DNA from: Nostocaceae cyanobacterium
GTDB taxonomy: Bacteria > Cyanobacteriota > Cyanobacteriia > Cyanobacteriales > Nostocaceae
Assembly (NCBI GenBank): GCA_035285345.1
Contig: JAYKJH010000239.1
Span: 4,840-68,839 of the forward strand
Direction: 5' to 3'
Length of the DNA: 64,000 bases
Position numbers and translations under genes: made by a program. Below are positions 20,308 to 60,981 of the stretch, piece after piece. Numbering within the stretch: position 1 is the first letter of the stretch; every line of letters starts with the position of its first letter. A model generated the notes under the pieces. The model was not told the DNA's origin, did not search any database, and was given only the letters and a program-made list of their open reading frames with translations.

Positions 20308-20376
20308 AGAAATTTTTAGGCTATTTACGTAGATTATAAGAATGATTTAACCGCAGATGAACTCTGATAAACGCCG

Positions 20377-21348
20377 ATGAATAGAAAAATTGTGGGAATG
20401 ATTAGTAGCTATTCTGGGCTGGAAAATAGACCAGATTGGTTGTGGCATCAAACGCCTTATCATTTTGGTAATTGGGGTAATATACAAATACTGGCACAAG
20501 CTCCTAAGCCAGATTTTTTATTAATGTACAATTATACAAGCTTTCCAGAAATTTCCGATAAAAAGGGATTTTTTTGGCAAAAAAATCGAAAAAAAAATGA
20601 ATATGAATTAGCGCAACAAGAGCTAGTCTCTAAGCTCCGAGGTGTTCCTAAAGAGCGGATAATTTATTTATTGCGGGAACCACCTTTAGATGAGGTCGTA
20701 GAGGCGAATAAGAGGTTTTATCGGCAAGCTCAGAATTATTGTAGCTATATTTCTGGTCCTGATGATTTTGCACCGACACCTGATTATATGCCTGCGATTT
20801 GGTATCATTCTAATTCATTTAGAGATTTAAATGATTTGCCGCATCCAGAGAAAGTAGCACCATGTAGTTGGATTACTTCTGGTATTACTCGCACAGCAAA
20901 TCATCGTCAGCGGATGACTTTTTTGCAAGAGTTACAAGCGAGTAATATTAAGTTTGATTTGTACGGTCGTGATTTACCAAATTGGGCACGAACTCCCGGA
21001 CAAATTGGGAGTAAATGGTCTGGTATGGCTCCTTATTATTATAACTTGGCGATTGAAAATTATGCTGATAATGATTGGTATGTGAGTGAGAAATTATGGG
21101 ATGCTTTACTTGCTTGGTGTTTACCAATTTATTATGGTGGTTCGGCGGCTGATAAGTTATTACCGAGCGGGAGTTTTTTAAGATTACCTAGTTTGGATGA
21201 AAAGGGAATTGCTTATATTCAGGATGTGACGGCTACTCCTGATGCTTGGTATGCAGCAAAGGATGCTATTGCTGAAGCGAGAAAGGTGATTTTACATAAG
21301 TTAAATTTGTTGGATTGGTTGTCAAATTATGTGAAACAATTTGATTAA
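20377..21348 (+). CDS. Glycosyltransferase family 10-like (alpha-1,3-fucosyltransferase-like)
   Basis: YNLAIENYADNDWYVSEKLWDALLAWCLPIYYGG closely parallels the GT10 motif FxLxFENSxxxxYVTEKxxDA....IPIYWG of Helicobacter FutA. Confidence 0.7.
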   Translation: MNRKIVGMISSYSGLENRPDWLWHQTPYHFGNWGNIQILAQAPKPDFLLMYNYTSFPEISDKKGFFWQKNRKKNEYELAQQELVSKLRGVPKERIIYLLREPPLDEVVEANKRFYRQAQNYCSYISGPDDFAPTPDYMPAIWYHSNSFRDLNDLPHPEKVAPCSWITSGITRTANHRQRMTFLQELQASNIKFDLYGRDLPNWARTPGQIGSKWSGMAPYYYNLAIENYADNDWYVSEKLWDALLAWCLPIYYGGSAADKLLPSGSFLRLPSLDEKGIAYIQDVTATPDAWYAAKDAIAEARKVILHKLNLLDWLSNYVKQFD

Positions 21349-23443: not shown

Positions 23444-23509
23444 AACCACAGATGAACATTCATGAACACAGATAAACCCATCTGTGTTTATCTGTGTGTA
23501 TCTGTGGTT
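23444..23509. repeat. Nested palindromic dispersed-repeat unit (MITE-like), possible terminator of the glycosyltransferase operon
   Basis: The outer arms are AACCACAGAT (23444..23453) and ATCTGTGGTT (23500..23509). The inner 12-bp perfect hairpin is ACACAGATAAAC (23466..23477) with GTTTATCTGTGT (23486..23497). The same AACCACAGATGA motif flanks the TnpB element. Confidence 0.7.
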
Positions 23510-23564
23510 AACTTCCTTATTATCTGAATTTTTGCCAGCACTATATTAACGTAATTATTAATCC

Positions 23565-24520: not shown

Positions 24521-24672
24521 CGCTCCTCCTTGTACTGTGTCAAGCGCCAAGAAATAAGCTCCAAAATTCTTTTGCGCCTTCTTCTTAGCGCCTTTGCGAC
24601 GCCAGTTGCTTCAACGGGGGTTCCCCCCGCAACGCACTGGCTCGCCTTTGCGCGAAACAAAAATATTCCCCT

Positions 24673-25539
24673 TCACCGACGAAATACCGCGACTACCCTT
24701 AACCGCAATAAATAATAGAAAAACCTAACCTCCTTACCTAACTTACCCACCACCTTTTCCCAAAAAGAAAGCTGAGGATATTCCAGCATTCCCTGCTGCT
24801 GAAAATATATCGCCATATCCTCCATCTTCGACTGACCATTTTTGATTCTAATTAACTCCGTTTTGTCCTTAAAAAAATCTATCCCCTTCATCTCACACCA
24901 TCTTACTGACAAACCAACCTTTACCGCTGCTAAAGCAATAGCATTCCCTTCCGCATCATAAACCCCATTTAATTCAAAATAAGGAGCAATCATATCCCAC
25001 TGCTTGAGAAACTCTAATTCTTTCCCACCATCTTTAGTCACCGAAAACAAATACTCGTAAACAAAAGGAATACTTTCATGTTCCACTGCTAAACCCAACA
25101 TTTGAGCTGCCTTTTGACTCACTTGAAATTCCCGACAAACTCTAGCGCTAGCACTACCCTCCAGAACTTTCGCATACTTTTTCGACATCACTTCACAACC
25201 CCTAGCTGAAATACCTGGTTGTTGAATCCATTGCATATCTTGCGGTACTGACCCCAAAATTCGCATATCCGCATCCAAGAATATACAAGCATTAAACAAC
25301 TCTAAAGCCTTAGCGAACGCAAATCTTTTATCGTGATAACCCTTCACACTTTGCTGACGATGTTTAAAGCTAATAACATTCGACTGTTCGCTAAATTCTT
25401 GCGGTTCATCAGATAAAACTAGAAAAGAAGTGTAAGGCGCATATTTCTCAATATCTTTTGCTAATAACAATGCCAAAGCGCGATATTTCTTTCCAAACGC
25501 TAAAGTGCAGAAACAAAATCCTGGTCTCTCTGAAATCAT
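24673..25539 (-). CDS. Putative DxD nucleotide-sugar transferase (paralog 2)
   Basis: FCFCTLAFGKKYRAL...YHDKRFAFAKAL...IFLDADMRIL. The start MISERPG is preferred, because the 18-codon upstream extension in the ORF track lies in a dispersed repeat. Confidence 0.55.
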   Translation of the reverse strand: MISERPGFCFCTLAFGKKYRALALLLAKDIEKYAPYTSFLVLSDEPQEFSEQSNVISFKHRQQSVKGYHDKRFAFAKALELFNACIFLDADMRILGSVPQDMQWIQQPGISARGCEVMSKKYAKVLEGSASARVCREFQVSQKAAQMLGLAVEHESIPFVYEYLFSVTKDGGKELEFLKQWDMIAPYFELNGVYDAEGNAIALAAVKVGLSVRWCEMKGIDFFKDKTELIRIKNGQSKMEDMAIYFQQQGMLEYPQLSFWEKVVGKLGKEVRFFYYLLRLRVVAVFRR

Positions 25540-25621
25540 ATTTGTGCCTTTGCGCCTTTGCGCGAAAAAAAAATAACTGCTCGTCACCAACAACGAGCAG
25601 TTATTTTAAATCCTCAAATTA

Positions 25622-25999
25622 CTAACTCATAGAATCCAAATCAAGAGCTTGAAAACCTTGACGTTCAGCATAAGCTAACATGCTACCTAATTGCTTCCAA
25701 ACCAACAAACCAGTTAGGAGTGTCATTGGTATCCCCACAGCATAGGCTAGCAAAGTGGGAAAGCCAAAAATTTCCAACCCAGAACCAAGAAACAGACAAA
25801 CACCGCCACTAATACCGATAAATGGCACGAAAATGCTGTTAATCGACAAGCTACTAGTTTCGGAAGTTTGGGCACCATTTTTTTGCCATTTCCGCACAAT
25901 TAATTTCAGCGTAGAGGCAAATGCTGCACCAGAGGTTAATGCTGCCAAAAGCCCAACTACAAGCAGGACATAGGGCGGACTAAAGGAATAGTAATACAT
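25622..25999 (-). CDS. Small integral membrane protein (3-4 TM)
   Basis: 125 aa and strongly hydrophobic. I recognise no family. Confidence 0.5.
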   Translation of the reverse strand: MYYYSFSPPYVLLVVGLLAALTSGAAFASTLKLIVRKWQKNGAQTSETSSLSINSIFVPFIGISGGVCLFLGSGLEIFGFPTLLAYAVGIPMTLLTGLLVWKQLGSMLAYAERQGFQALDLDSMS

Positions 26000-26267
26000 G
26001 AATAACTCCTGATAATGACTGGGGGAAAGTTATCAAGACACTCCTAGGAAGTATCTCTATCACTGTCTCACAAAAAACCGATTGCGGTTAGCAAACCTAG
26101 ATGTTATGTTTCCCTGTCCTACTCAAACACCAGATTCTCCAGATTTATAATCTTAATTAATCTAATTCAGTAAAAATATAAGCTATTACGATTTACAAAT
26201 TGATAAACTCCGCAATATTTGCTTAACATCAAAAAAATAATTGACAGCATTCTCAATTATCCACGTA

Positions 26268-26296
26268 TTTACAAGCCTTTGCCGATGTAGTATAAT
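26268..26296 (+). promoter_or_regulatory. Near-consensus sigma70-type promoter with no downstream ORF
   Basis: TTTACA (26268..26273), then N17, then TATAAT (26291..26296). A second TTGACA lies at 26241. Downstream are about 240 nt of AT-rich, ORF-free sequence before the IS element. Confidence 0.4.
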
Positions 26297-26581
26297 TTTT
26301 CATAATACTGGCGACGTATGTAGCTTAATAAAAAAACCTTTAATATCGCTTAATAATTGCTTGAATGCACAAAACACAAAAAATTCAACGTATTACACCT
26401 GCAACTTTTTAGTTTATTTTCACGGGTTTATCAACTAAATATCGTTAATTTTTATAAATCAATTATCTAAAGAATTACTAAAAAAGCCATTTATACCTTG
26501 ACATAAAGATAATGATGTGATGTTAGATATATTTTGGAAATTAACCACAGATGATTTATCTGTGTTTTAGCTCTTAGACGG

Positions 26582-26619
26582 GAAGCCCCGCGCTCTACCC
26601 GATAGGGTGAGCGTCGGGA
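26582..26619 (+). repeat. Left-end subterminal hairpin
   Basis: GAAGCCCCGCGCTCTACCCGATAGGGTGAGCGTCGGGA forms a stem of about 14 bp with 2 bulges and a GATA loop. It has the same architecture as the right-end hairpin. Confidence 0.7.
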
Positions 26620-26695
26620 TGAGAGGCGCGTGAGTCGAGGTACGTTGCCTGACCAATGCGAAGCGAGGGAAGGCAACAGTGCCTAGACGAACACA

Positions 26696-26836
26696 CTATC
26701 TATCGGCTCCAGGCAGAGAGCTTATGTAGAAGCGAATGACCTCTGCCATGCTCAACCCCTTTTTGTCTGCATAAGCTTTTAACTTATCCCATTCTTCATC
26801 GGTGACTCGGATATTTAATCGCTTTTCCCTTGCCAT
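26696..26836 (-). CDS. Ribbon-helix-helix (CopG/MobC-N-like) small protein, 46 aa
   Basis: Manual translation gives MAREKRLNIRVTDEEWDKLKAYADKKGLSMAEVIRFYISSLPGADR, with the classic RHH beta-strand (RLNIRVT) plus two helices. It is below the ORF-track length cutoff. It is divergent from tnpB and inside the element. Confidence 0.6.
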   Translation of the reverse strand: MAREKRLNIRVTDEEWDKLKAYADKKGLSMAEVIRFYISSLPGADR

Positions 26837-26920
26837 CGTGATGCCATTTGGTAGTACGATAAGAGTGTAAATCATCTGGATTGTTATGGCTAGATTGTGC
26901 CCATTGTCGGAGCGGAACTA

Positions 26921-28219
26921 ATGCCAGTTGCCTACCAGTACCGCCTACTGCCAACTTCTGAGCAACGTGCTGAAATGTCGCGGTGGCTTGATATGTTGCG
27001 ATTGCAATATAACTGGATGTTGGCAGAGCGGTTTCAATGGTGGGAAGAAAATCGCTCGTCTGTGAATGCTTGCCCATTGGTTTGTCATCTGCCAGAACTG
27101 AAAGATCAGCCCGACTACTACAGCCAGAAACGCTCCCTAGTGCCACTGAAGCAAGATAGACCCTGGTACAAAGACATTCACTCTCAGGTGCTTCAGGATA
27201 TGGTGAAGCGGGTCAAACTAGCATTTGACCGCTATCTTGGCGGCGATGGTAACGGCAACCGGAGTGGAAAGCCTCGCTTCAAAAGGAAGAACCGCTACCG
27301 CTCGTTCACCTATCCTCAAGCTTCAATCGACTGGATTGATGGCAACAAAATTGAGCTACCCAAGCTTGGGACATTCAAGGTGATTTGGCATCGTCCACTG
27401 CCTGAAGGCTTTAACGTCAAAACCGCCATCATTACTCACAAAGCGGACGGTTGGTATATCACGCTAACCCTAGAAGATGTTTCAGTTCCCGAATTCACAT
27501 CAGATATTGAGCCGACAGCAGGCAATTCCATCGGGATTGATCTCGGAGTTGAAAAGTTCCTGGCTGACTCAGAAGGGGAATTCGAGCGAATTCCTCAGCA
27601 CTTCAGAAAGTCAGAACAAAAGCTTGCACGATTGCAGCAAAAAGTATCGACTGCCAAGAAAGGGAGTCGCGCTTCGTCGCTGCTAGTTCGCAAGGTTGGC
27701 AAATTGCATCAAAAGATTGCACGACAACGCAAACAGTTTCACTACGAAACAGCGCAAAAGGTTCTCAAGAAAGCCGATGTGGTGTTTGTTGAGGATCTGA
27801 GGGTGAAGAATATGTCCAGACGTGCCAAGCCCAAGCAAGATGAAACAGGTAAGTTTCTCCCCAATGGTCATGCGGCTAAGTCTGGGCTGAACAAGAGTAT
27901 TGCCGATGCAGGCTGGAGTCAGTTCATTGACATCCTTGCTTTCAAAGCTGAAAAAGCTGGTTCGCGAGTAGTCAAAGTAAACCCCAAAGGAACCTCGCAG
28001 CATTGCTCAAACTGCCTGAATCGTGTCCCTAAAGAGTTGTCTGACCGATGGCATTCTTGCCCACATTGCGGTACAGAACTCGACCGGGATACAAATGCGG
28101 CAATTTTAATCAAAAAAGTAGGGTTGGACATCGCCTTACTCAAAAACGCTCAACCAGCTATGCGCGGAGCGCAGGCTTTGCCAACGGCTCGGAAGAGAAG
28201 CCCGCGCTGTACCGCCTAA
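26921..28219 (+). CDS. tnpB: RNA-guided endonuclease TnpB (OrfB_IS605/OrfB_Zn_ribbon)
   Basis: MPVAYQYRLLPTSEQ... The RuvC triad is intact (GIDLGVEKF, VFVEDL, RDTNAAILI) and the zinc ribbon is CSNC...CPHCG. The ATG at 26921 is preferred over the ORF-track start at 26897. Confidence 0.9.
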   Translation: MPVAYQYRLLPTSEQRAEMSRWLDMLRLQYNWMLAERFQWWEENRSSVNACPLVCHLPELKDQPDYYSQKRSLVPLKQDRPWYKDIHSQVLQDMVKRVKLAFDRYLGGDGNGNRSGKPRFKRKNRYRSFTYPQASIDWIDGNKIELPKLGTFKVIWHRPLPEGFNVKTAIITHKADGWYITLTLEDVSVPEFTSDIEPTAGNSIGIDLGVEKFLADSEGEFERIPQHFRKSEQKLARLQQKVSTAKKGSRASSLLVRKVGKLHQKIARQRKQFHYETAQKVLKKADVVFVEDLRVKNMSRRAKPKQDETGKFLPNGHAAKSGLNKSIADAGWSQFIDILAFKAEKAGSRVVKVNPKGTSQHCSNCLNRVPKELSDRWHSCPHCGTELDRDTNAAILIKKVGLDIALLKNAQPAMRGAQALPTARKRSPRCTA

Positions 28220-28245
28220 GCGGTCAGCGTCGGGAGTATGTCACA
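28090..28245 (+). ncRNA. Predicted omega/right-end RNA scaffold overlapping the tnpB 3' end (approximate limits)
   Basis: In characterised TnpB elements the guide RNA scaffold spans the 3' end of tnpB to the RE boundary. The structured RE hairpin at 28197..28235 fits this. The boundaries were not determined. Confidence 0.4.
28197..28235 (+). repeat. Right-end subterminal hairpin
   Basis: GAAGCCCGCGCTGTACCGCCTAAGCGGTCAGCGTCGGGA has the same bulged stem as the LE copy. It shows compensatory changes (C:G to G:C in the outer stem, inner stem ACCC/GGGT to ACCGC/GCGGT). Confidence 0.7.
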
Positions 28246-28271
28246 ACTGGTCATCTGTGGTTAATTACTAC

Positions 28272-29984
28272 TCAACGCTGACCACCAAACAGGGGGATAG
28301 ATGGAGCTTTCGGTAAGATAGCTGCTGTGCCCTCTCTGGATAACTCAGTTAAAACACCAATCGCAACGTTAAACAAGCGAGTCGGTTGTAAGTCATCCTT
28401 AACTAAGTTCCATAACCGCTGGACTTCTGCGGTGTGCAGGCGATCGTCTTCGGTGAGGGCGAGTAACAACTGACGGCGGAGAAACTTACCTTCATCCGAG
28501 AGAATAAATTGCAAGCCTAGTTGTGCTGTCGGCAGTAAATCAAAGCTACCATCAGTACGAGCAATGGAAATCAAATTTTCCAACCGCTGCCACTGAAATT
28601 TCCCATTTTTAAACAAGATATTCAGTAACCGTCGCCGCAGTTCAGCAGATTCTCCTGTCAACAGACGCCGTGCAACGTAGGGATAAGCTACCTCGATGAT
28701 TTTAAAATTGGGGTTGAGGCTCAGAGCTATACCTTCCTGGGTTACCAAGGAACGAATAATCAACGCGAATTTTGCTGGGACCCGGAAGGGGTAGTCATAC
28801 ATCAGTTTCGAGTATTCATCGGTGATGGTTTTGAAGTTAAAATCGCCGACGTTCTTACCAATTGCGTTCCCCCACACGGCTTCTAGGGCGGGGACGATGG
28901 GACGAATATCTATTTCTGGTGTTAAAAAACCTAGCTTCACGTAGTCTTCAGCTAAGTCATCATAGTCTTTGTTCACCAGATGTACTACCGCATCCACCAA
29001 GGTTTCTTTCGTCAGTTGATCCAACTGATCCATCATCCCAAAATCAATATAAGCCATCCGACCATCCGGCATGGCGAATAGGTTTCCAGGGTGGGGGTCA
29101 GCGTGGAAAAATCCATGTTCTAATAGCTGCTGCAACCCGGAGGTAACGCCAATTTGGATAATTGCTTCTGGGTCTAAACCGGCAGCGCGAATGCTTTGCG
29201 TATCAGTCAGCTTCCAGCCGTTAATCCACTCTAGAGTTAAGATGCGGCGGCTGCTATAGTTCCAGTAAATTGCTGGTACTTTAACGCGGGGGTCGTTCCG
29301 GAAGTTGTTAGCAAATTTCTCGGCGTTGCGACCTTCGTTGATATAGTCAATTTCCTCAAATAACTTCGTGCCAAACTCGTCCACAATTAAGCTGAGGTCG
29401 TGTCCCAAGTTTAGTGGTAGCCAGGGTGCTAACCAACCCGCTGCCCAACGCATCAAATACAAGTCTAGGGTAATTACAGGACGTAAGTTAGGACGTTGCA
29501 CCTTCAGTGCTACTTCTTCTCCACTTACCAGTCTACCCCGGTATACTTGTCCCAAACTCGCCGCCGCTACCGGATGGGATGACAGTTCACTAAAAACTTC
29601 CGTCAGGGGTCGGTTGAGGTCGGCTTCAATAATCTTCAGCGCGATCGCGTTATCGAAGGGCGGTAACTGGTCTTGTAGCTTGATCAGTTCTTCTAAGAAA
29701 TCTTGGCGTACTAAGTCCGGTCGCGTTGACAAGGCTTGACCAACTTTAATAAATGTCGGACCCAAGCGGGTGAGAATTTCCCGCAATTGAGCAGCCCGCT
29801 TTAATTTATTCTCCTCTTGTTGATTTTGCCATTCATCCCACTTCAGACCCAGCAAGAATCTAGCAAAAAACCATATAATTTTCACGGCTCGTGCCACAAC
29901 TAACCAAGGACGAACGCGGTAGTAACGAGCGATCGCCTTAGCATCGTAGCGTCTATTCTCTGTGGTAAGTGTTTCGGAATTCAC
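28272..29984 (-). CDS. ABC1/UbiB-family atypical kinase
   Basis: 570 aa with AAASLGQVYRG...VALKVQRP...HADPHPGNL...IDFGM motifs. Confidence 0.9.
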   Translation of the reverse strand: MNSETLTTENRRYDAKAIARYYRVRPWLVVARAVKIIWFFARFLLGLKWDEWQNQQEENKLKRAAQLREILTRLGPTFIKVGQALSTRPDLVRQDFLEELIKLQDQLPPFDNAIALKIIEADLNRPLTEVFSELSSHPVAAASLGQVYRGRLVSGEEVALKVQRPNLRPVITLDLYLMRWAAGWLAPWLPLNLGHDLSLIVDEFGTKLFEEIDYINEGRNAEKFANNFRNDPRVKVPAIYWNYSSRRILTLEWINGWKLTDTQSIRAAGLDPEAIIQIGVTSGLQQLLEHGFFHADPHPGNLFAMPDGRMAYIDFGMMDQLDQLTKETLVDAVVHLVNKDYDDLAEDYVKLGFLTPEIDIRPIVPALEAVWGNAIGKNVGDFNFKTITDEYSKLMYDYPFRVPAKFALIIRSLVTQEGIALSLNPNFKIIEVAYPYVARRLLTGESAELRRRLLNILFKNGKFQWQRLENLISIARTDGSFDLLPTAQLGLQFILSDEGKFLRRQLLLALTEDDRLHTAEVQRLWNLVKDDLQPTRLFNVAIGVLTELSREGTAAILPKAPSIPLFGGQR

Positions 29985-39059: not shown

Positions 39060-39293
39060 CTTGTTACCTCCATTTCGGAACTTCCTATTCTTGAGTGGAA
39101 TAGTCGTCGTTTGTGGTGTCTAAAATTTAGTTAGCTGCTGTCTGTTGCTTAGTTTCTACACACTAATCTAACAGGCTGACTCTCACTAGATAGTGGGTGG
39201 AACCGTACCAAAAGCGTTGTGTTTTCTCTCCTGTATTAAAGAATAGGGATTAGGAATTAGGGACTGGGTAAATAATTACCCATGACCCATTCC

Positions 39294-40250: not shown

Positions 40251-40855
40251 GGCACTAATTTCAATATAAAAGGGTTAGCGTTACGGTCATTCAAGCGATA
40301 GATGCCTTCGGCACTGTGGTAATTACGGGCTATATATTAGACTGTTTTACTTTTGATCGAGTATTTATGGCTACTGTAGGTTGTCACATCAAAGTTTTTT
40401 TCAACTTGATTTTTTCGTTAACAATTGTAACATTTATGAGAATTATTTTACTACCTCCTGAGATACAACTAGTGGGTATAGCTTCTATTTACTATGGACT
40501 AAGGCAAGTTCTGGATACAAAGCACCAGACCCTGACTAAAAATCTCCAGTCTAGCGGCGATACTGAGTAGATGCAGGTTGTTAATGAAGGCTTATGTATA
40601 GAGAGGATGAAACTGTAGAAGGCAGAGATTTACTAGAGATTACCTAGAAATTTACTCAATAAATGCATCTGAGAGAACAAAAAATAGCAAAATTTATTAA
40701 ATCTTGCCAGGTGTAAATATAATATTCACTTAATTTTTTGTGAAAATTTGCGGTGGCAGTATCAGGGAATGGGGTTAGTTGATAGCTAATAGCAAATAGG
40801 GACAAGGAAAAAGAAAGGGGACAAAAAAGTAATATTTCTGCCCCTCTCCCTTTTT

Positions 40856-40883
40856 CCCTAATCCCTAATCCCTAGTCCCTAGG
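40856..40883. repeat. Heptamer tandem repeat (CCCTAAT/CCCTAGT x4)
   Basis: CCCTAATCCCTAATCCCTAGTCCCTAGG, abutting the carB stop codon. Confidence 0.8.
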
Positions 40884-48067: not shown

Positions 48068-48868
48068 TTATTGAGTGAACTGCACGAATACATAATCGGG
48101 TTTAATACCTGTGGATGACAACTTTTTATTCACTAAAGCTGTCTTTATACCATAGTCAAGCGCACCTTTTATATCAGTATCAAGGGTATCACCGACCATG
48201 ACGATACTTGCCTTATCTGTAGAGTTGACATGGGAATAAGCTAGAGCAAATATATCTAGAAAAGGCTTGCCGATGTAAATCACCGCTCCCCCAAGTTGTT
48301 CATACATTTTGGCAACAGAACCAGCACAGAATCGCTTTTCTCCTAGCAGTGAAAGAGTGTGTAAATCAGGATTCACACACAGCATCGTCACTTGTCTTTC
48401 TAGAAAGACTTGAAAATCTTGAGGATACTGAAAAGCAGAATCCGTTGCCGTTAGCAAGATAAATTCTGCCTCGTCAGGTAGGTTAACTCGCAAGTAGGGT
48501 AAACCCTGCAATAACTGCTCATGTTGAGCCTCACCCATGTAATAATAACGAGAACCCACAATAGTTTTCTGACCTGTTGTATTAGCAGAAAGCAGATATC
48601 GAGTCGTGTCTCCAGAAGTAACAATTGCTTGATATAGCGCTTGGCTAATACCCAGGGATGAGAGTTGCTCGGACATGAGTGCCCCAAGAGTTGGGGTGTT
48701 GCTAATCAAGACAACGGTTTTTCCCTGACTCTTCAAAAATGTCAACCACTCTACAGCATAGGGAAAACATTGTTCACCATCGATTAGCACACCCCATAAA
48801 TCAATAAAAAAAACATCGAATTGGGTAGCGAGTTGATGCCATGAATCAGTACTACTTTTGACAATCAT
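48068..48868 (-). CDS. HAD-superfamily hydrolase (subfamily IIA-like)
   Basis: DVFFIDLWGVL (DxxG-type motif I), ISNT, and GKP...VGDTLDTDI motifs. Confidence 0.8.
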   Translation of the reverse strand: MIVKSSTDSWHQLATQFDVFFIDLWGVLIDGEQCFPYAVEWLTFLKSQGKTVVLISNTPTLGALMSEQLSSLGISQALYQAIVTSGDTTRYLLSANTTGQKTIVGSRYYYMGEAQHEQLLQGLPYLRVNLPDEAEFILLTATDSAFQYPQDFQVFLERQVTMLCVNPDLHTLSLLGEKRFCAGSVAKMYEQLGGAVIYIGKPFLDIFALAYSHVNSTDKASIVMVGDTLDTDIKGALDYGIKTALVNKKLSSTGIKPDYVFVQFTQ

Positions 48869-48927
48869 AATGGTTTAAGATTGGAGTAGAATTGATAGAA
48901 AGATTAGAAAAGAAATCTAGAGCAACT
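48840..48927. repeat. 88-bp direct repeat, copy 1
   Basis: It is identical to 49760..49847 except for 1 mismatch (48921 A versus 49841 G). It contains the HAD gene start and a duplicated AroE-like 3' end. Confidence 0.9.
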
Positions 48928-49743: not shown

Positions 49744-49759
49744 GTGATAAATATTATGT

Positions 49760-49847
49760 CATGAATCAGTACTACTTTTGACAATCATAATGGTTTAAGA
49801 TTGGAGTAGAATTGATAGAAAGATTAGAAAAGAAATCTAGGGCAACT
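49760..49847. repeat. 88-bp direct repeat, copy 2
   Basis: See copy 1. This copy contains the real 3' end and stop of the AroE-like gene. Confidence 0.9.
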
Positions 49848-51852: not shown

Positions 51853-52791
51853 TCATGGTAGTGCAAGATATGAGTCAGGCTTACTGTTCCAAAGGGTGAC
51901 AATGCTATTACTGCCATCCTTTGTAGGAATCAGAGTCAGATATAGGGGTGTGGGTTTGTCTTCACGAATCAATGTATAAATTACTCCACCATTTGGCAGC
52001 TTATCCTCACCTTCAATAGTGAATTGCTCGTTTAAAATTTCTGTACTGACGTAAGTTTCATACAACTGCTGGGGATTAGTACCTGGAACTTTGGCAATTA
52101 AACCATCAACAATTGCTGGGTGTAGCTGACCATTCTGAAGAAAAGCATTCGGATTATCCACTAGGTCTTCTAAGCGCTCAACTTTTTGCCAATCATCCTT
52201 CATGGGTACACCACCTACGGAATCAACCCCCAATGGTTGCATCTGCTCAGGGGGTGTGGGAGTTGGAGTGGGAGTTGGTGTGGGAGTTGGAGTTGGTGTG
52301 GGAGTTGGAGTTGGAGTGGGAGTTGGGGTGGGAGTTGGGGTGGGAGTTGGTGTGGGTGTGGGAATCGGTGTGGGAGTTGGTGTGGGTGTGGGAGTGGGAG
52401 TTGGAGTCGGTGTTGGAGTTGGAGTTGGAGTTGGTGTTGGTTTAGGTTTTGGTGGTAAAGGTTTTTCAGCTTCCGGTTTGGGGATGGGAATTGGTGGTTT
52501 GGCTACTATCTGAGGTTTCGGACGAGGAATTGGTGGTTTTGTAACCGATTGCGATGGAGGGATAACGGGTTTTTTTGGGGGAACAGCCAGTTTTTCTGGT
52601 TTGGGAATCTTTAATGATGACGACGAAGGTGCCAGTCGCGTTACCTTGACCAGCTTTTCTGGCTTTTTCTTATCTTCCTTGGCTGTTTCCTGGGATGGTA
52701 TGGGTATTGCCAATAGTACACAGTGTAGCGCTATAGAACTGAGCCACACTGGTTGCCATAAACTGCGTAGGGGTAGAGGCAAATTTTTCAT
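51853..52791 (-). CDS. Membrane-anchored protein with a long (Thr-Pro)n linker and a globular C-terminal domain
   Basis: It has an N-terminal TM ([22 protein letters not shown]), a Pro/Lys-rich segment, about 40 consecutive TP dipeptides, and a 130-aa C-domain of unknown family. Confidence 0.65.
52251..52440. repeat. Coding microsatellite-like array (GGNGTN)n encoding (TP)n on the minus strand
   Basis: GGAGTTGGTGTGGGAGTT... periodicity runs for about 190 nt. It generates three spurious plus-strand ORFs. Confidence 0.9.
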
Positions 52792-60350: not shown

Positions 60351-60367
60351 GTAGGGACGCTGGAAAT

Positions 60368-60423
60368 AATGACTAATGACTAATGACTAATGACTAATGA
60401 CTAATGACTAATGACCAATGACT
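60368..60423. repeat. Heptamer tandem array AATGACT x8 (one AATGACC variant)
   Basis: Read directly from the sequence. The last unit supplies the ATG (60418) of the downstream acetyltransferase gene. Confidence 0.9.
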
Positions 60424-60981
60424 AGCGATGCAGAACCGTTTGTAGATTTACGTAAGTATGACCAATCTTGGTTTGACCGGGGGCGTCCGGGCTGGTATAT
60501 CTTGTTGTGGTGGTTTGTGCAAGCGATCGCCTTTCCCCTAAGTCCTCACCCCCTAAATAGCGCGCGATGTGCGCTGCTGCGTTTATTTGGCGCTACCATT
60601 GGTACAGATGTCATAATTCGCCCCACAGCTCGCTTCACCTATCCCTGGAAAATAACCATCGGCGACTATAGTTGGATTGGTGATGATGTAGTTTTATACA
60701 GTCTTGACCATATAAATATCGGTAAACACTGTGTCATTTCCCAGAAAAGCTATCTGTGTACTGGTAGTCATGACATCCAAGACCCAGCTTTTGGTTTGAA
60801 AACCGCCAGTATTACCATAGGTAATGGGGTATGGATTGCGGCTGATTGTTTCATTGCACCGGGAATTCAAATTGATGCGAATGCCGTAATTGGCGCAAGA
60901 AGCAGTGTTTTTAGTCACATGCCAGCCGGTCAGGTTTGCTACGGGAATCCTTGTCGTCCGATGTATTCCCGGCTAGGGTAA
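60418..60981 (+). CDS. Hexapeptide-repeat acetyltransferase (WcaF-like)
   Basis: 187 aa with left-handed beta-helix repeats (IGDYSWIGDDVVLY, IGNGVWIAADCFI, IDANAVIGARSSV). Confidence 0.8.
   Translation: MTSDAEPFVDLRKYDQSWFDRGRPGWYILLWWFVQAIAFPLSPHPLNSARCALLRLFGATIGTDVIIRPTARFTYPWKITIGDYSWIGDDVVLYSLDHINIGKHCVISQKSYLCTGSHDIQDPAFGLKTASITIGNGVWIAADCFIAPGIQIDANAVIGARSSVFSHMPAGQVCYGNPCRPMYSRLG

Follow-up and report, generated by a model that had tools for sequence, protein, structure and literature searches.

Elements of the IS1341 type are derivatives of the IS200/IS605 insertion sequences (IS) that encode only TnpB; they are non-autonomous, retain the ends of the family and are presumed to be mobilised in trans. 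IS608 and ISDra2 carry subterminal imperfect palindromes on the same strand, show neither terminal inverted repeats nor target duplications, and insert 3' of a fixed tetra- or pentanucleotide (TTAC or TTGAT), and in this family the target tetranucleotide abuts the left end without being part of the element (PMC3201880). Their right end lies 10 nt past the foot of the right palindrome, a 4-nt guide stands 5' of each foot, tnpB lies towards the right end (RE) with the omega-RNA over its 3' end, and tnpA is divergent from tnpB. Arc-like ribbon-helix-helix (RHH) open reading frames (ORFs) have been described in TnpB elements (Zedaveinyte et al, 2023; bioRxiv 10.1101/2023.11.20.567912), and the Arc proteins of IS605 elements, including elements with "arc and tnpB alone", bind and repress the divergent promoter of the element (Moon et al, 2026; bioRxiv 10.64898/2026.09.24.754181). 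Neither Zedaveinyte et al (2023) nor Moon et al (2026) mentions cyanobacteria. Here we describe one region of a 64-kb stretch of cyanobacterial DNA (contig JAYKJH010000239.1, positions 4,840 to 68,839; hereafter the window). We put the probability that positions 26571..28244 are a non-autonomous IS200/IS605-family insertion sequence of the arc-tnpB type at about 85%. Such an arc-tnpB element is a known type of transposon, and its architecture is already described in the literature.

The locus shares with IS608 and ISDra2 all of the features listed above, the omega-RNA being predicted and the divergent tnpA being that of autonomous relatives. It differs from them in that the window copy has no tnpA but an RHH gene in its place, in its target (TTAG instead of TTAC or TTGAT), and, in the case of ISDra2, in a TnpB that is only distantly similar (E = 4e-31). 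Unlike IS1341-type elements, it has a second gene, arc, so that the label "TnpB-only" given to it by an earlier sequence-only reading does not hold: an Arc-like RHH gene (26696..26836, minus strand) occupies the position of tnpA. This arrangement, with a small RHH gene within the boundaries of the element and a short intergenic region between it and the divergently oriented tnpB, is that of the Arc-containing IS605 elements. The characterised Arcs, however, are clostridial, and the arc of the window fills the tnpA slot instead of accompanying tnpA. We liken the Arc of the window to the published ones on generic RHH family matches and on position. The features of the element, with its immediate target, are as follows.

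26571..28244 (1,674 bp): IS200/IS605-family insertion sequence, in the order left-end (LE) hairpin, arc (minus strand), tnpB with overlapping omega-RNA, RE hairpin.
26566..26570, plus strand: target and left cleavage site (CL) together with the predicted TnpB target-adjacent motif (TAM), T-TTAG, in which TTAG is 26567-26570; directly 5' of the element and outside it.
26571..26640, plus strand: LE, with the left guide (GL) AAGC at 26583-26586, the left imperfect palindrome (IPL) at 26587-26618 and a conserved GATGAGAGGCGCG tail.
26696..26836, minus strand: arc, a 46-aa RHH gene (MAREKRLNIRVTDEEWDKLKAYADKKGLSMAEVIRFYISSLPGADR), stop codon included; divergent from tnpB and in the tnpA slot.
26837..26920: arc-tnpB intergenic region, the presumed divergent promoter and Arc operator.
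26921..28219, plus strand: tnpB, 432 aa, a predicted RNA-guided nuclease; its TAA stop codon lies in the loop of the RE hairpin.
28100..28244, plus strand: predicted omega-RNA scaffold, 5' limit approximate; overlaps the 3' end of tnpB and includes the RE hairpin and a AGTATGTCAC tail.
28197..28244, plus strand: RE, with the right guide (GR) GAAG at 28197-28200, the right imperfect palindrome (IPR) at 28201-28234 and the right cleavage site (CR) TCAC at 28241-28244.

The limits of the element were set against related loci, for which a scan of one genome per species yielded 80 loci, nearly all of them cyanobacterial; the best, from Leptolyngbya-type genomes, had 91% protein identity, and the window's own genome was absent from this set. 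On the right side, relatives match the window up to ...GGGAGTATGTCAC (...GTCAC) and are unrelated from the next base on, in 28 aligned loci and in 48 when copies located with a covariance model (see below) are included. The homology to about 30 independent cyanobacterial insertions ends exactly at 28244 (...GTATGTCAC/, the slash marking the end), which is exactly 10 nt 3' of the foot of the RE hairpin. On the left side, conservation starts at T(T)TAGCT, and TTAG, mostly as TTTAG, is kept in more than 20 independent insertions, while the upstream flanks of the related copies are otherwise unrelated; no target duplication was seen among the aligned insertions. The left end was set at 26571 because the target tetranucleotide of IS200/IS605 elements lies outside the element (PMC3201880). 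One cyanobacterium, Altericista, has three copies of a related element. The GC profile of the element shows no anomaly relative to the neighbouring genes, and composition therefore gives no sign of a foreign origin.

The sequence-only reading had placed an intact tnpB (RuvC D-E-D and zinc ribbon) between two imperfect hairpins of the same orientation, and both were found within a few bases of where it had located them. Folded as single-stranded DNA of the same strand, LE (26587-26618) and RE (28201-28234) have the same architecture, consisting of a CCCG/CGGG foot, a bulged T, a 5-bp stem, a further bulged T and an inner stem, with energies of -14.0 and -16.5 kcal/mol and z-scores of -3.9 and -5.4, respectively. 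The compensatory differences that had been read between the two (C:G versus G:C, and ACCC/GGGT versus ACCGC/GCGGT) are exact. In an alignment of 46 LE and RE hairpins from relatives (44 of them distinct), 96.5% of the cells were paired and 10 of the 13 pairs had changed on both sides. The covariation score of this alignment was 0.397, compared with 0.114 ± 0.013 in shuffles, none of which scored as high (0 of 500). As a control, the partners were slid by 1–3 columns, which left only 31–42% of the cells paired.

A covariance model built from the 46 LE/RE copies and run on the 64-kb window with filters off gave no match above 11 bits other than the two end hairpins, which scored 62 and 56 bits. 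When the model was run on the 80 related loci, 75 of 77 matches lay on the tnpB strand and either flanked tnpB or were cut by the end of the locus; the remaining two (in L054 and L064) were on the minus strand and away from tnpB. The hairpin searches used BLAST and the covariance model, a loose regular expression having been dropped for its thousands of false matches. The hairpins thus form part of the ends of the other copies as well and are no generic repeats dispersed independently of tnpB. Selection acts on the structure of both subterminal hairpins. Their strong covariation and their position flanking tnpB on its own strand in relatives support the view, already put forward from the sequence, that they are the structure-selected LE and RE palindromes of an IS200/IS605-type element.

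The cleavage sites and guides around the hairpins can be compared with those of IS608, whose right guide is GAAT; the four nucleotides 5' of the right foot in the window are GAAG (28197-28200). The CL of the window, TTAG, lies 16 nt 5' of the foot, as opposed to TTAC, 19 nt 5' of the left foot, in IS608, and the four nucleotides 5' of the left foot (GL) are AAGC in the window (26583-26586) and AAAG in IS608; CR is TCAC (28241-28244) and ends 10 nt 3' of the foot, as does the TCAA of IS608 (PMC3201880). CL and GL covary between loci. Most loci have TTAG with AAGC, L007 (around 2830-2860) and L072 (around 2480-2510) have TTAA with AAGT, and L032 (around 600-640) and L036 (around 2670-2700) have TGAG with CAGC. 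This is what base-pair-guided recognition of the cleavage site predicts, in a pairing register that we infer, and it lends support from a distant clade to the base-pairing model of IS608. The natural covariation is of the same kind as that engineered in the IS608 retargeting experiments.

In 15 related loci, a Y1 (IS200-type) tnpA of about 136 aa lies between the same LE hairpin and tnpB, on the opposite strand; some of these copies are disrupted or truncated. The presence of a Y1 TnpA in both close and more distant relatives that share these ends places the family in IS200/IS605 proper, and since tnpA is missing from the window, the window copy is a non-autonomous derivative. Mobility of the element would need TnpA in trans, as the sequence-only reading had also held. 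That the hairpins are conserved only as RNA elements, that is, as the 3' stem of the omega-RNA and as a terminator for arc or tnpA, and not as sites for a transposase on single-stranded DNA, would fit the position of the RE hairpin within the predicted omega-RNA scaffold and that of the LE hairpin downstream of arc, on the opposite strand. We consider this extremely improbable: LE and RE, which lie on one DNA strand, are alike in sequence and architecture, a T-tract is missing from the reverse complement of LE, the spacing of the cleavage sites and the covariation of guide and cleavage site fit the IS608 TnpA model, and autonomous relatives encode TnpA.

Homology stops at 28244 and starts after TTAG, and both halves of the palindromic repeat AACCACAGATGA that bracket the element are therefore outside it, as had been proposed from the sequence (homology limits 26571/28244). 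The flanks, and the same site in two relatives, read as follows.

26543..26564, plus strand: left flank, outside the element, with AACCACAGATGA at 26543-26554 and a complete local hairpin, CACAGAT-GATTT-ATCTGTG, at 26546-26564.
28245..28264, plus strand: right flank, outside the element; would be the omega-RNA guide AACTGGTCATCTGTGGTTAA, and holds the right half of the palindrome, TCATCTGTGGTT, at 28251-28262.
Window site: GAAATT-AACCACAGAT-GATTT-ATCTGTG-TTTTAG-(element)-AACTGG-TC-ATCTGTGGTT-AATTACT.
L083 site (98% relative; L083 6714-6760): GAAATT-AACCACAGAT-AAATC-ATCTGTGGTT-AATTACT.
L084 site (86% relative): CACAGATGATTTATCTGTGTTCATCTGTG..., the left-flank hairpin of the window and, after it, a second ATCTGTG unit.

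The repeat AACCACAGATGA was found at 26543-26554 (plus strand), at 28251-28262 (minus strand) and at 23444, with four matches at no more than one mismatch compared with 0.38 expected. Judged by its ABC1 kinase, which is 82–84% identical to those of named Nostocales, the host is a Nostocales-like cyanobacterium; an exact look-up of this kinase gave no match. In the sister strain L083 (ABC1 kinase 98% identical), the gene order is the same and the element is absent, the intergenic region measuring 587 nt as opposed to 2,272 nt in the window. A hairpin of this type is present at the orthologous sites of L083, L084 and L085, all without the element. The flanks therefore represent a conserved but variable hairpin cluster downstream of the ABC1-kinase gene, and the element a lineage-specific insertion. 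A look-up of the 125-aa protein encoded next to the element returned two short Logan contigs of the same strain. Contig L081 (Logan SRR13425444), which corresponds to 24629-26631 of the window at 99.8% identity, ends 61 nt into the element, just past the LE hairpin; the break at 26631 may fit either a repeat or low coverage.

It had been suggested from the sequence that the element is inserted into a dispersed hairpin-forming repeat, as are relatives that target repetitive extragenic palindromes (REPs). The insertion into a hairpin repeat is supported by the sister strain, which has a hairpin of this type without the element, but the targeting of REPs is no trait of the family, whose shared feature is a TTAG target and in which some 30 flanks are unrelated. 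Because these roughly 30 other insertions have flanks that are unrelated to each other and not palindromic, we conclude that the family targets TTAG rather than the repeat; in the present case, the T-rich end of the hairpin probably provided this TTAG. The word "dispersed" applies only weakly. Besides the insertion site, the hairpin repeat has one other locus in the window (23444-23511) and a degenerate, one-armed copy (20349-20385), so that the 64 kb contain two loci and one degenerate copy; among the 80 tnpB-related loci, cyanobacterial loci unrelated to the window's site, none has the repeat. The locus at 23444-23511 is a larger, nested palindromic cluster of CACAGAT/ATCTGTG units (AACCACAGATGAAC...ATCTGTGGTTAAC).

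The perfect 12-nt inverted repeats that bracket the element (26543-26554 and 28251-28262), and the further copy of the repeat at 23444-23511, could also be taken to mean that the real termini are AACCACAGATGA and TCATCTGTGGTT, as terminal inverted repeats of a larger mobile unit with tnpB as its cargo, either a transposon of the terminal-inverted-repeat type or one similar to a miniature inverted-repeat transposable element. This is very unlikely. The homology with every relative stops inside the repeats (at 26566/26571 and at 28244), none of the approximately 30 other copies has such flanks and none of the 80 related loci shows the pattern, and the orthologous sites of L083 and L084 have the hairpin without tnpB, which assigns the repeat to the host locus.

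Within the insertion sequence itself, neither arc nor tnpB has a disrupted reading frame, and both ends are intact. TnpB matched the Pfam families HTH_OrfB_IS605, OrfB_IS605 and Cas12f1-like_TNB above their cut-offs and the NCBIfam family guided_TnpB with 290 bits. Its RuvC motifs IDLG, VEDL and DRD (D-E-D) and its CxxC...CxxC zinc ribbon align with those of solved TnpB structures and are intact. It is encoded by the only tnpB of the 64-kb window (tblastn and six-frame profile search), and its nearest relatives, 90–92% identical, come from Leptolyngbyaceae-type cyanobacteria. A TnpB with 86% identity is encoded in L012, a contig of only 1.7 kb labelled as a metagenome-assembled genome of Aeromonas, where a 90-aa MerR-like helix-turn-helix ORF (417-689) lies upstream and neither arc nor tnpA is present; the taxonomic label may be a binning error.

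RNAalifold, applied to the last 230 nt of 22 elements, recovered the RE hairpin and a conserved 7-bp stem upstream of it (28118-28124/28133-28139), within the tnpB coding region, with compensatory changes in five of the seven pairs. Conserved, covarying stems of this kind are consistent with an omega-RNA scaffold. A search of Rfam with positions 26000-28800 (E ≤ 1) returned no omega-RNA family, the sole match being a chance match to P14. Since the established TnpB model places the guide in the right flank, the scaffold would by analogy end at ...GGGAGUAUGUCAC, and the guide would be the flank AACTGGTCATCTGTGG... from 28245 on; the only other near match to this flank in the window is at 23446-23461, with three mismatches. 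Between the two conserved stems of the predicted omega-RNA, the window copy has a 24-nt insertion unique to it (ATGCGCGGAGCGCAGGCTTTGCCA, 28160-28183), which lengthens the C-terminal tail of TnpB by 8 residues.

The Arc protein matched the Pfam families NikA-like (30.5 bits) and RHH_1 (20.5 bits), with additional weak matches of the ParD and RelB types. An in-frame ATG further upstream (26875) is not conserved, and an exact look-up of Arc (59 aa) gave no match. In the three closest relatives (L001, 2506-2646; L002, 1540-1680; L019, 615-755), Arc is 93–98% identical. A small RHH-like ORF in the same slot and orientation is present in at least 30 related loci without tnpA, which include Moorena, about 18 Nostocales loci, Crocosphaera and one Ktedonobacterales locus. 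When ten representatives of these ORFs were searched against Pfam, nine gave RHH-type matches, mostly below the curated cut-offs, and the type found in L003 gave none. The Arc sequences are of five or more types, and the combinations of LE-arc module and tnpB are mosaic. The TnpB of L003 is 90% identical to that of the window, yet LE leader and Arc (L003 392-595 versus window 26571-26836) belong to another type, which also occurs in L032, where TnpB identity is only 51%. Recombination between elements thus appears to exchange the LE-arc module and tnpB. Within a large lineage of cyanobacterial IS605 elements, Arc seems to have taken the place of TnpA in the same slot more than once.

The closest relatives have an additional small ORF with a zinc ribbon between arc and tnpB, its stop codon overlapping the tnpB start. 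This ORF has 101 aa in L001 (2696-3001) and in L019 and 55 aa in L002 (1730-1897), and it matched no Pfam or NCBIfam family. The window retains its last 11 codons (ATG at 26886, stop at 26919-26921); the loss of the remainder looks like a deletion between GATTGTTATGGC-like direct repeats. In the remaining intergenic sequence, direct repeats of the ATTGT type (26878-26909) are at most a candidate Arc operator.

Small RHH genes next to tnpB are also known from archaeal RHH/MazE-TnpB loci (Altae-Tran et al, 2023; PMC10691335), which are immobile, have a rearranged RuvC-III and carry the RHH gene upstream of tnpB in the same orientation, as a putative toxin-antitoxin operon. The element in the window, by comparison, has a canonical active site, divergent genes and transposon ends. 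These archaeal pairs, proposed as toxin-antitoxin systems (PMC10691335), lend some weight to the idea that arc and tnpB are an immobilised, domesticated module, such as a toxin-antitoxin-like or regulatory pair (cf. the archaeal RHH/MazE-TnpB loci and TldR repressors), whose hairpins are relics or act only as RNA. Further points in its favour are that RHH proteins are common antitoxins, the Arc of the window having weak ParD and RelB-type matches, that the window has no tnpA, and that the window copy is single and diverged. We regard such a domestication as unlikely, as the catalytic D-E-D is intact and not rearranged, and the LE hairpin, which no omega-RNA would include, has been kept through compensatory changes. 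CL and GL covary in the tnpA-less relatives too, the relatives occur in many unrelated genomic contexts, the sister strain lacks the element, and arc is divergent from tnpB, without a shared operon, unlike in the archaeal loci.

If the region is a non-autonomous insertion sequence, as we favour, a Y1 TnpA supplied in trans would bind the hairpins of both ends in the single-stranded top strand. It would locate its cleavage sites, TTAG/ on the left and TCAC/ on the right, by pairing with AAGC and GAAG just 5' of the hairpin feet. TnpA would then excise a single-stranded circle and reinsert it 3' of another TTAG ("peel and paste"), with a predicted excision joint ...ATCTGTGTTTTAG/AACTGGTCATC... 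and a predicted RE-LE circle junction ...GTATGTCAC/CTCTTAGACGG.... The omega-RNA loaded on TnpB would end in ...GGGAGUAUGUCAC followed by about 16–20 nt of the right flank (AACUGGUCAUCUGUGG...), and TnpB would cut the empty donor joint (TAM TTTAG, then the guide match), whereupon recombination would restore the element. Arc would bind the short arc-tnpB intergenic region and repress both genes. The present copy would have landed in or next to the conserved palindromic hairpin just downstream of the ABC1-kinase gene, with TTAG coming from the T-rich tail of the hairpin. In favour of mobility are the roughly 30 different flanks, the three copies in Altericista and the absence of the element from the sister strain.

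Several points weigh against this reading. No tnpA was detected in the window copy or in the 64-kb window as a whole (tblastn and profile search in six frames), and a sigma-70 consensus scan showed no promoter in the element. A second copy of the element was not found, the databases hold no TnpB more than 92% identical, and exact look-ups of the 432- and 440-aa forms were empty; the window copy may be old or inactive. Both the deletion in the arc-tnpB intergenic region relative to the closest relatives and the 24-nt insertion at 28160-28183 could impair function, the latter that of the omega-RNA or TnpB. Expression of the omega-RNA, the TAM and binding by Arc are all features that we infer. 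At the insertion site, the L083 allele has neither TTAG nor 24 nt of the joined flanks, and the loop of its hairpin is inverted (AAATC versus GATTT); it does not correspond exactly to the state before a clean insertion at TTAG/AACTGG. Moreover, an exact-pattern scan of metagenomes for the joined flanks (CACAGATGATTTATCTGTG N0-20 CTGGTCATCTGTGGTTAA) gave 0 matches. The search for an unoccupied site that had been proposed from the sequence thus produced an allele without the element in L083, but joined flanks with TTAG were found neither in L083 nor in the metagenome scan.

The L083 allele may be either a separate variant of the repeat or a scar of excision and repair. Its derivation from the occupied allele by a deletion between the direct ATCTGTG repeats was rejected on account of the inverted loop (AAATC versus GATTT). 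A more speculative role of Arc may be considered here. Arc could be more than a repressor, with arc and tnpB forming an addiction-like or homing-only module that maintains itself and spreads with little or no need for a transposase, and the sister allele, without the TAM and the first part of the target, could then be a scar that escapes cleavage by TnpB; we hold this to be improbable.

As a cleanly delimited example of a known transposon type, the element mostly changes nothing. It does provide a definition of the ends, a predicted TAM (TTTAG) and a 3' boundary of the omega-RNA for a cyanobacterial TnpB clade, a potential compact genome editor. Arc-bearing, tnpA-less IS605 elements are, moreover, common in cyanobacteria, whereas the published experiments are clostridial.

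Other repeats were observed elsewhere in the window. A long tandem array with a period of 12/18 nt, which probably encodes a glycine-rich repeat (GGTTTGGGGATGGGAATTGGTGG...), extends over positions 52228-52508. Two direct repeats of 92 nt (48836-48927 and 49756-49847) are 98% identical and lie 920 nt apart. Heptamer tandem repeats of the (TAATGAC)n and GGGATTA types, which are typical of heterocystous cyanobacteria, were found at 60367-60436 and at 39241-39263 and 40855-40877.

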